Shown: one piece after another, positions 15,001 through 18,000 of the stretch
Layout of the letters: each line of letters opens with the position of its first letter
Position numbering within the stretch: the first letter of the stretch is position 1
From: Escherichia coli
Lineage (GTDB): Bacteria > Pseudomonadota > Gammaproteobacteria > Enterobacterales > Enterobacteriaceae
NCBI RefSeq assembly: GCF_003334385.1
Contig: NZ_QOWN01000030.1
Strand: one strand, 5' to 3'
Length of the DNA: 57,197 nucleotides
Program-made: the position numbers

Positions 15001-18000
15001 TCTGTTACCAATGCTCAAAATAAAAGCATGCTTACCTTGCTTTAGTATATTATAGCTTACACTTTTTTCTGGAAAGACATAAAAATCAGGAATAAGTTGT
15101 GCAAGTCTATCATCATCAACTTGATCCATAATCTCAAACTTATTAACTTTCTTTGATGTTAAATGGGCTGTGTCATAGTTTTCAATCCATGTGTATTCAA
15201 TATTTCGCCGTATTGATTTACTTTCTCTGTTACCTTGTTGCCAGGTTCCACTCAACGCAACAGTTCCTGTTTTATTTTTTTTGTTATACATAAAGTCGAT
15301 GGTAAGATTTGCTCGTCCCTGGTCATTAAAAATTACCCAATTTGCAGTGCATGTTTCGTTATATATCATTTTTTCTGCAGTGTAAGAATAGACAGTGAAG
15401 AGAATAAACCCACTGATAAAAACTAAAATAAATAATAAGTTTTTTTTATAATCAATCACGATTAACCTCACGGTAAGACAGGGTTAAACAGTTTGCCACT
15501 TCATGTTGGTTATAGTTTTTATTGCATGCCATAACAATCATCCCCGGTGAGGATTTTGCAAGAGGGAAGTATAACCACGGATGTTTTTTACAGTTAATCC
15601 CCGAATCCAGTATCCGTGTTTTATATTTATCGAACTCTTTCAACCCATCAATTGTATCTTCTGTTACATTAAAATGGCAGCCATTAATTTCCGCAACAGT
15701 CTTGTAATCCTTGAAAAATGGCTTCGGTTGATTATTATTCCATAGCCAATATGCAGAATATGCGCCTATGACAAATGCGCTCAACATAATTAGATGACTT
15801 TTTATATGTTTGAGGATTTTGTTATTGAAATTCTTTGCGCCACCAATGCTCTCTTTGTATCCCGCATTAACTTTTATGGCAGGTGGGGCATTGTGTGTAT
15901 GTGCGTCTGTTGACGAGTTTATTACATGATTTTGTATGTTAATGTCATTATGGATCTTGAATCCTCTTCTCGGCACGGTTGCAATTAGCGAGTGGGTAGT
16001 ATCACCAACAGCGCGAAATCCGCGTCTGATAATGGATATGTTCTGATATAACGTGTTAGTAGGCACACGCATACCTTCTTCTTCCCAGACTCTGGTGAAA
16101 AAATCTTGTTGTGCAACCACATCAGGAAAAGCTTCAAGTAGAAGTGATAAACATCGACTGGCTGGCGTTGTCAGAACGACGTTAAGATCGGCGTTATGTA
16201 CCGATATTAATTTTCGGTGCTCAGGCCAGAACTCGATATTATCGTTAATAATCCAGTACATACGTCAATAAACACTAAATCAATCGAAATGGAGATCACA
16301 TAGTTTGCTAAGTATATTGGTATTTACGGCATAAATATATATTAATTTTATATTTATCATGATGATTGAAATGAGGCTTTAATGTTGCAACGTAAAACTT
16401 TACGTAAATTAACATGGTTAACATTTATGCCACTATTGTTTGTAAATTCATATTTCGTAATGCTTCTGAATTTTTCGTGTGATGGTTTTAAATACTATGG
16501 TGTTTACTCTTGAGGGGACGGCCTATTTATAAAATACGGACATTTCAATAAATGCCCGTATAAACAGAGTATGATTCTGGCTGGTCGTTGAGTATCAATG
16601 TTGGACCGAATGTGAACGAATAAATAATTCGTTTATTTTACCACCCATTCTCTTTTCGATTCGTTGCTTGTACGCGTAGATGCTACGGATATCCATATCC
16701 AGAACTTCAGCAATCTGATATGGATTATAACCAGAAACCATATACCCCATTATGGTGAATTCCATCTGAGTTAATGTGTTACCTCTGGTAAATGATAAAT
16801 AACGACCAATAAATAGTTGTCTGATCTTTTCATTGGCAACATCAAGACCATCATCATTATATATGACAGCAGATATTGCTGAGTTGTGTTTTCGCCAGTA
16901 ATTAGCTAACGATTGCATATTGCGGTCGCTGACTAAAACAATCCCCATGTCAGTACTTGCAAGATAGTCAATCCAGTCTTTTTCAAGGAATAGACGTAAA
17001 AAACTTACTGAAAAATCGACAAAAATATATCCGCTTAATCTCGCATTGTGGTTTTTTGTTAAGATACCTTCTACCACACCACGATTAAAATATGAACTTT
17101 CTTCGGGCCACATACAAAAACACGAGTTTGCGCAATACTGCAAACGCGGTGACTCTTCTGGCATTATTTGGCAATGCATTGAGCAACTATTGCATGTAAG
17201 ACTTTTATAACGACTACAAAGCCCCATGTTAAGAACCTCCCTATCCGTATATAATTGCATAATTTCATTGGTTATTGATGATGTCAATACACCATGATTT
17301 TGTAATTTTGCCGGGAAAAATTGCGATTAATCTGTATTTGCTATAATTCTGAGTAAGGCATTTAAAAATGCATTTCTCGTTATCAAATATGATTATGTTT
17401 CACTGATTTAATCTTGCATGGTTGAGAGCGGTCCAGATAACTATCTCATGGTATAAGAATATCTATATCGCAAATTGTTTTTGAATGACCAGAAGATATC
17501 TTGCGAATCTAAGTTATGCATCTTAAATAGTCTTATTTAAGATGTTCAGATCTCTTTGTGTGTTTAACTAACTGATAATACTAGGATATGACGAGAGAAG
17601 TGATAGGGTGGAATAATAACAAATGAATATTATGAAAAATGGAATGGTTCAAAATTGTAGCAATTTTGAACCATCCACAACTGATATTAGCTAAAGAACA
17701 TTACCGATACGCACAGGATACCCACGATCAGCGTAATCAGATTTCCGATGGAACGCCAGGGTTTAAGCGCCGGGATGAGATATGTTGACAGCGTAGGCAT
17801 GATGAAAAGTATCATGGCAATGAGCGGGCCGCTGATCGCGTAAATCATCGAAATCGCGTTCGGGTTAATGCAACAAACAATGAAGGTAATCAGCGATACC
17901 AACATAATTGATAGTGCGCGGTTAAATGCACGACTTTTCTTTACACCAACCTGCTGTAGTGTTGTTTTGACGACCTCTGTGGCACCTTCAATAACGCCAA

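Follow-up and report, generated by a model that had tools for sequence, protein, structure and literature searches.

A conserved four-cysteine module at the N terminus of the EcpR/MatA-family regulator YqeH of Escherichia coli, a putative metal site

We analyzed the regulatory gene yqeH in a 57,197-nucleotide stretch of Escherichia coli DNA (RefSeq assembly GCF_003334385.1, contig NZ_QOWN01000030.1), referred to here as the window. RefSeq annotates its product, WP_001305805.1, as a 'helix-turn-helix transcriptional regulator'. The 1101 bases around the gene were 100% identical to E. coli strain 720632, and the yqeH region was found in 4116 of 5426 complete E. coli genomes. Deletion mutants of avian pathogenic E. 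coli that lack yqeH are less motile, less adhesive and less virulent and form less biofilm, and YqeH has a positive effect on espE3 (PMC9014576, PMC11068852). Translated from the ATG at 17227, the protein begins MGLCSRYKSLTCNSCSMHCQIMPEESPRLQYCANSCFCMWPEE and carries cysteines at residues 4, 12, 15, 19, 32, 36 and 38; the 172 residues beyond these lack cysteine altogether. At a 1.1% background, at least seven cysteines within 38 residues have a binomial P of 1.8e-7; this value, together with the conservation described below, led us to reject chance clustering. The features of the gene and its surroundings are collected in Table 1.

Table 1. Features at and around yqeH, in window coordinates.
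Feature	Position	Strand	Basis or remark
yqeH coding sequence	16595..17227	minus	210 aa + stop; open reading frame list; RefSeq coordinates identical
Shine-Dalgarno sequence GGGAGG	17236..17241	minus	7-8 nt ahead of ATG 17227; read from sequence
Promoter-like TTGACA, 17 nt spacer, TG-extended AATTAT	17259..17287	minus	Consensus scan, 10/12 matches; weak
Cysteine-rich N-terminal module, codons 9-41	17105..17203	minus	AlphaFold2 model, pN/pS, motif conservation
Core Cys4 motif C12-x2-C15-x3-C19-x12-C32, putative metal ligands	17132..17194	minus	Alignment and motif counts
C36-F-C38, additional cysteines where the first strand of the receiver-like domain begins	17114..17122	minus	YqeH orthologues and plasmid orf3
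EcpR_N receiver-like (pseudo-receiver) domain, residues 37-140	16808..17119	minus	Four beta-alpha units; signatures WP[DE]xN, FVDFS, D[RK]xMxxLANYW
LuxR/GerE-type helix-turn-helix, residues 151-195	16643..16777	minus	
Terminator-like hairpin, 16-bp stem and T-run	17642..17676	minus	Just past the yqeG stop, separates yqeG from yqeH; consensus scan

The preliminary description of this DNA had reported a seven-cysteine segment ahead of a LuxR helix-turn-helix. The translation from ATG 17227 reproduced the sequence quoted there exactly, and the helix-turn-helix was recovered as a Pfam GerE match (E = 6.6e-5). The two elements do not adjoin, since an EcpR_N receiver-like domain of about 100 residues lies between them. 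The same description had also considered that the true start codon might lie downstream of the cysteines, or that homologues might lack them. Neither was found: a Shine-Dalgarno sequence and ATG stand upstream of the cluster in both E. coli and Citrobacter koseri, and 35 of the 57 family representatives have C12, C15, C19 and C32 at constant spacing.

The position of the start codon follows from the DNA upstream of the gene. The ATG at 17227 is preceded by TAGGGAGG with a spacer of 7-8 nt, and nothing comparable precedes the next candidate, M39. C. koseri (locus L008) has the same TAGGGAGG-7 nt-ATG arrangement, and its DNA encodes MELDVKLKNLTCSSCSLHCKIMPEKSPRLQYCANACFCMWPEES in frame behind the conserved Shine-Dalgarno sequence. 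An in-frame TAG two codons upstream of the C. koseri ATG excludes a longer upstream extension of YqeH. A start at an upstream TTG or ATG in E. coli was therefore rejected, on account of this TAG and of the promoter-like site, which would place the transcription start downstream of both codons; the latter is weak evidence, as promoter-like sites in this region are no commoner than in shuffled sequences.

Selection on the segment was gauged by the ratio of the proportions of nonsynonymous and synonymous differences (pN/pS) against four orthologues, which are 81% to 50% identical to YqeH and have synonymous sites near saturation. Residues 9-41 gave values of 0.10 (C. koseri), 0.17, 0.42 and 0.34, and residues 46-210 gave 0.11 (C. 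koseri), 0.20, 0.31 and 0.36 for the same orthologues. The cysteine codons alternate between TGT and TGC across the compared orthologues, and E. coli yqeH alleles with seven nucleotide differences encode an identical protein. By these comparisons, the cysteine segment is translated and is under the same purifying selection as the remainder of the protein. Translation from M39 (MWPEES...), with the upstream codons as a leader and the cysteines outside the protein, is extremely improbable: it agrees with the start in database entries P0010 (172 aa), W1ETC3 (172 aa) and C. koseri A8AP74/P0023 (195 aa), but it is already contradicted by the strong Shine-Dalgarno sequence ahead of M1, by the entire in-frame segment in C. 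koseri, by the protein-level selection on residues 9-41 and by conservation of the cysteine motif at 22-45% identity, and M39 cannot be a general start because residue 39 is threonine in orthologues P0004 and P0017.

We analyzed the conservation of the cysteines in relatives of YqeH. An exhaustive search of 1.84 billion cluster representatives yielded 121 relatives, and 57 full-length ones were aligned; because the sample combines representatives clustered at 50% identity with close orthologues, the counts below are not phylogenetically independent. A family motif, C-x2-C-x3-C-x12-C-x7-WP, comprising C12, C15, C19 and C32 (hereafter Cys4), was seen down to approximately 22% identity. Among the 57 sequences, cysteine was present at position 12 in 38, at 15 in 38, at 19 in 40, at 32 in 34, at 36 in 9 and at 38 in 15. 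The 35 motif carriers were counted with an alignment-independent pattern (C..C...C.{5,18}C.{2,12}[WY]P), and 29 of them had the exact 12/7 spacing; 27 of the 35 came from the 49 representatives that are less than 50% identical to YqeH. The four positions were mostly kept or lost together: 32 sequences had all four cysteines, four had the first three, two had two of the four, and 19 had one or none. All four were invariant in a 28-sequence N-terminal alignment (A3), and 11 members, termed 'ext0', had an N-terminal extension of similar length without the motif.

Orthologues 50-82% identical to YqeH, from E. fergusonii, Citrobacter, Shimwellia and others, kept C12, C15, C19, C32 and C36. C38 was kept in all except one (P0042, with serine at position 38), and C4 was found in none. 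On this alignment, C36 and C38 mark the YqeH subfamily, and C4 is confined to E. coli. The seven-cysteine cluster of the preliminary description is thus a composite, of which four cysteines are family-wide.

In a neighbor-joining tree built from the receiver-like and helix-turn-helix parts, Cys4 carriers appeared in every major branch with Cys-less forms interspersed, which suggests that the module is ancestral and was lost repeatedly; the tree is crude, and further start miscalls among short members are possible. The start codons of two such members were checked: P0081 proved to be miscalled, with the full motif upstream, and P0093 is genuinely short. The high cysteine content, which had been called unusual for the LuxR family, is indeed so for LuxR-type proteins generally, but among proteins combining EcpR_N and GerE domains it is common and probably ancestral.

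Starts called too far downstream were seen in C. koseri A8AP74 (195 aa; L008 2924-3625), in P0081 (176 aa; L020 about 2920-3531) and in E. coli W1ETC3 and P0010 (172 aa). Such miscalls remove part or all of the Cys4 module.

The domain annotation placed YqeH in the enterobacterial EcpR/MatA family of LuxR-type regulators, whose members control adhesins and virulence traits. In precomputed annotation, PF27348 (EcpR_N) matched the cluster containing YqeH and all 58 homologues. The best NCBIfam model was EcpR (NF047921; E 1.7e-20, residues 31-202). Its score of 73.8 bits is far under the equivalog cutoff of 300, and the neighbors of the gene are yqeG and yqeI, not ecpA. By this score, YqeH is a paralogue of EcpR/MatA and not EcpR itself. 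The family signature residues were strongly retained among the 57 representatives (W40 in 56, P41 in 57, D71 in 50, D101 in 51, A108 in 56 and W111 in 51). No Response_reg match was listed for YqeH by Pfam at an independent E of 10 or below, and the genes annotated in the 19 kb on the ETT2 side, yqeH included, comprise no kinase gene.

We utilized AlphaFold2, with the 57-sequence family alignment as input, to predict the full-length structure (mean predicted local distance difference test score, pLDDT, 90.4; predicted template modeling score 0.87). The predicted structure opens with a hairpin (residues 10-12 and 20-22) whose turn carries C12-x2-C15, followed by a short helix (residues 29-32) and a strand (residues 37-40) leading into the invariant W40-P41. 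Four beta-alpha units spanning residues 37-139 form what the model predicts to be a receiver fold, and the C terminus is a GerE-type four-helix DNA-binding domain. Atypical receiver LuxR regulators such as CsgD, VpsT, RcsB and NarL differ from this model, which has four rather than five beta-alpha units, and none of them has an N-terminal Cys4 cap. In the full-length context, the first four 10-residue blocks (residues 1-40) had pLDDT values of 78-86, whereas the N-terminal segment modeled alone reached 64 and was not confidently folded. This difference suggests that the cysteine segment packs on the receiver-like domain.

A close known relative of YqeH is MatA/EcpR (b0294), which regulates the E. 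coli common pilus (ecp) operon and is an auxiliary partner of RcsB. MatA and YqeH share the EcpR_N and GerE architecture and the signatures WP, FV(D/N)xS and LANYW, and both are encoded by AT-rich, H-NS-type genes that affect motility and adhesion. They differ in that YqeH has the Cys4 module and MatA lacks it, and in that YqeH does not stand beside a pilus operon but at the ETT2 edge near yqeI and yqeJ. The K-12 matA gene (L011 6747-7337) encodes one N-terminal cysteine and has stop codons just upstream. Similarly, K. huaxiensis EcpR (P0112) scored 356 bits on the EcpR model without carrying the motif. The NCBIfam EcpR (180-residue) and TviA (179-residue) models align only from about residue 31-37 onward, and family members match the TviA model weakly. 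MatA and TviA are functional auxiliary partners of RcsB and act independently of their own phosphorylation (PMC5651002). Because these documented partners work and MatA lacks the module, the core regulator scaffold functions without the cysteine cap. Within the RcsB auxiliary group (MatA, TviA, RcsA, BglJ, GadE and DctR), YqeH is homologous to one partner, MatA/EcpR; the portions of the records that a literature search returned for YqeH and RcsB contained nothing that looked relevant to a link between them.

Other EcpR_N regulators carrying Cys4, from Klebsiella, Enterobacter, Pluralibacter, Shimwellia and others (some annotated 'RmbA family'), have the full architecture and motif of YqeH. They are 22-45% identical to it, mostly have the four core cysteines alone, and occur in adhesin-operon or mobile-element contexts rather than at ETT2. 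One such gene lies upstream of a chaperone-usher operon (L002), others lie upstream of, and convergent with, ECP-type pilus operons (L006, L013, L014 and L020), and one adjoins an autotransporter (L012). None of these relatives appears to have been biochemically characterized in the literature searched.

Two further observations concern members of the family outside E. coli. In K. pneumoniae, both EcpR_N regulators that flank ecpA-E (L006 8001-8618 and 14851-15486) carry the Cys4 motif, and the Klebsiella gene in the 'EcpR' position scored just 32.9 bits on the NCBIfam EcpR model. On the C. freundii IncHI2 plasmid NZ_OW849257.1 (L022 4980-5609), the gene known as 'orf3' encodes a YqeH-family regulator with 45% identity and all six YqeH-type cysteines (INCMSCPSQCELKPNASLRVSFCQDYCFCTWPE). 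It lies just downstream of ISCR1-blaCTX-M-9 and a few kilobases from mcr-9, and relatives annotated as an 'Orf3/QacEdelta1 fusion' are present in Klebsiella and Providencia. The set of six cysteines is likewise complete in P0060. Of 125 plasmid records with a YqeH match, 123 show less than 60% identity; 92 of the 125 belong to conjugative plasmids.

The rigid spacing, the joint retention or loss, the purifying selection and a hairpin-helix that is modeled confidently only in the context of the whole protein together argue for a single site with four ligands. We consider it probable, at roughly 0.75, that the four cysteines of YqeH coordinate one metal center. The N terminus would then be a small metal-binding knuckle capping the pseudo-receiver, in which Cys12, Cys15, Cys19 and Cys32 would ligate one metal; the motif stands at a fixed seven residues ahead of the invariant Trp-Pro with which the receiver-like domain begins. 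Such a module may be an add-on through which metal or redox state tunes the activity of the pseudo-receiver and helix-turn-helix, for example via stability, dimerization or pairing with RcsB as in MatA and TviA. C36 and C38, the subfamily extras, may supply alternative or second-shell ligands. We favor a modulatory role over a purely architectural one because the cap is optional on a working regulator yet strongly conserved where present.

Several observations weigh against a metal center bound by the four cysteines. Shared ancestry, together with possible start miscalls among the short members, confounds both the all-or-none pattern and the tree. The motif is missing from approximately 40% of the family representatives, which presumably function nonetheless. 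In addition, yqeH belongs to a low-GC, H-NS-type island, and its expression may be low.

The identity of the metal is less constrained than its presence. Similar cysteine spacing is known for both zinc and iron-sulfur (Fe-S) sites, so that spacing alone allows either: C-x2-C-x3-C with one distant cysteine is the [4Fe-4S] motif at the N termini of molybdopterin oxidoreductases, and C-x2-C-x2-C-x7-C forms the structural zinc site of alcohol dehydrogenase. Searches for a known metal domain in YqeH found no match by Pfam, PDB or fold comparison. A Pfam scan of 28 N-termini returned noise only (Tat, UPF0506 and zf-CCCH_3), with no Fe-S or zinc-finger family at E of 0.001 or below; the sole zinc-finger match was zf-CCCH_3 in one of the 28, at E = 0.032. 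The N-terminal profile had no matches in the PDB at E of 10 or below, and the full-length profile gave only weak LuxR helix-turn-helix matches there, the best being EvgA (E 0.019). The metal- or redox-sensing module of the preliminary description is therefore well supported by the conservation pattern as far as metal binding goes; the sensing part remains inferential, as a structural zinc site is equally compatible with that pattern.

A Zn(Cys)4 site, possibly redox-labile, is favored by a narrow margin over an Fe-S cluster. In its strictest form, a purely structural Zn(II) would stabilize the N-terminal cap without any sensing, and the Cys-less lineages would have replaced the metal by packing, much as ribosomal proteins occur in C+ and C- forms in which packing substitutes for a metal site. 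This form is a serious candidate, at somewhat less than an even chance. It is consistent with the CxxC knuckle in the predicted beta-hairpin turn and with the 11 'ext0' members, in which the cysteines were lost jointly and the length of the segment was retained. Cys4-zinc sites are also commoner than Fe-S clusters in bacterial regulators, and close cysteine triplets can bind structural zinc, as in alcohol dehydrogenase. Against it, YqeH has one CxxC pair (C12/C15) with single cysteines as the other ligands, whereas zinc ribbons and treble clefs have two knuckles; YqeH thus resembles neither, and a non-canonical Zn(Cys)4 site is still compatible with its ligands. No zinc-finger family passed the Pfam threshold, and strong purifying selection on an optional add-on is hard to explain if the site is purely structural.

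An Fe-S cluster, probably [4Fe-4S], is nearly as likely; by being assembled or lost through oxidation, it would switch YqeH and the other Cys4 proteins on or off, in the manner of FNR-like sensors of O2, redox state or iron. YqeH has the three to four conserved cysteine ligands that an Fe-S transcription factor of the FNR, WhiB, IscR/NsrR or SoxR type requires, a necessary and not a sufficient feature. Its cysteines at i, i+3 and i+7 plus a remote one follow the cluster-binding spacing of Molybdop_Fe4S4 enzymes such as FdhF and NapA, in which C-x2-C-x3-C likewise lies at the extreme N terminus around a beta-hairpin; the fourth cysteine is 24-34 residues away in those enzymes, but 12 in YqeH. 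The module is an accessory to a core that itself functions, as a sensor would be, further cysteines (C36 and C38) lie nearby in the YqeH subfamily, and the family controls adhesins, motility and virulence traits that are commonly O2-regulated. However, no Molybdop_Fe4S4, Fer4 or other Fe-S match was found among the 28 N-termini, YqeH showed no homology to an Fe-S regulator or domain, and the literature searched does not link E. coli YqeH to Fe-S, the matches referring to the unrelated Bacillus GTPase YqeH.

FNR, the O2 sensor of the CRP/FNR family, offers a functional analogy only. It is a transcription factor with an N-terminal cysteine cluster, and its O2-labile [4Fe-4S] cluster gates dimerization and DNA binding. 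Its fold is unrelated, its motif is C-x2-C-x5-C with a distant Cys122, and no sequence similarity to YqeH was detected. The full proposal, in which the cap is an Fe-S cluster labile to O2, redox state or iron and YqeH a direct environmental sensor whose pseudo-receiver takes its input from the cluster instead of from phosphate, is less likely than not in our judgment. A metal-free thiol-disulfide switch forming reversible disulfides under oxidative stress is quite improbable: a CxxC pair and six to seven clustered cysteines in a cytoplasmic regulator speak for it, but a switch needs two cysteines and here four are conserved at rigid 2/3/12 spacing, mostly kept or lost together.

The novelty of the metal-center reading was checked against the literature. 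The words cysteine, domain and N-terminal are absent from the YqeH paper PMC9014576, and no description of a cysteine motif or metal binding in YqeH was found in the literature searched. Neither was mentioned in the titles and abstract openings of the EcpR papers, and a search combining RmbA with LuxR returned no match. Gene, family and fold have all been described before; the conserved Cys4 cap apparently has not.

The yqeH gene is located on the margin of ETT2, a degraded type III secretion island, with yqeI, yqeJ, yqeK, ygeF, ygeG and ygeH on one side and yqeG and yqeF on the other. The surrounding DNA is 31-39% G+C and rises to the approximately 50% of core genes from 18-19 kb. The step at 18000-19000 falls within or just past yqeG, so that yqeH is compositionally part of the island. 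Despite this composition, the order lysR-yqeF-yqeG-yqeH is kept at another locus (L009), where the orthologue is 68% identical. In C. koseri (L008 1085-3625), yqeH, with rcnR-rcnA-like genes after it, is divergent from yqeI-yqeJ, whereas yqeH, yqeI and yqeJ are all co-directional in E. coli (window 14977-17227); the neighborhood is thus conserved yet rearranged. Another regulator in ETT2, at 4930..5430, was considered as a YqeH paralogue and rejected (BLASTP E = 1.6).

The ETT2 island itself occupies 684-14209 of the window and is present in degraded form. Frameshifts affect the YscQ-like, EscU-like, lytic transglycosylase and ygeF genes of the identical reference strain, in which an internal stop also interrupts the LuxR-type gene ygeK/etrB (9671-10303) and only part of the SpaN/EivJ gene is present. 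Compared with that strain, the window has single-base offsets in a few open reading frame coordinates near 800-5430. Rfam detected no RNA elements in or near yqeH. Elsewhere in the window, it identified the tandem small RNAs OmrA and OmrB (86 and 97 bits; 28419-28500 and 28615-28702) and a tRNA at the window end (57124-57197), all ordinary and expected for this region of E. coli.

For YqeH and the MatA/EcpR family, whose members govern widespread adhesins, a conserved and probably ancestral Cys4 metal site provides a concrete hypothesis for what these orphan regulators sense. If correct, it would explain why the regulation of MatA, of the EcpR equivalogs and apparently of TviA runs solely through their own expression and their RcsB partner. 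Recognition of the module also corrects start-codon annotations that cut it off in several species, and it draws attention to a YqeH-family member riding with CTX-M beta-lactamase genes on conjugative plasmids. If the site were an Fe-S sensor, the same would hold for the two ecp-flanking regulators of K. pneumoniae, for many adhesin-linked paralogues in Enterobacterales and for the orf3 passenger traveling with blaCTX-M-9 and CTX-M-2, and MatA, the EcpR equivalogs and probably TviA would be derived, sensor-less forms.

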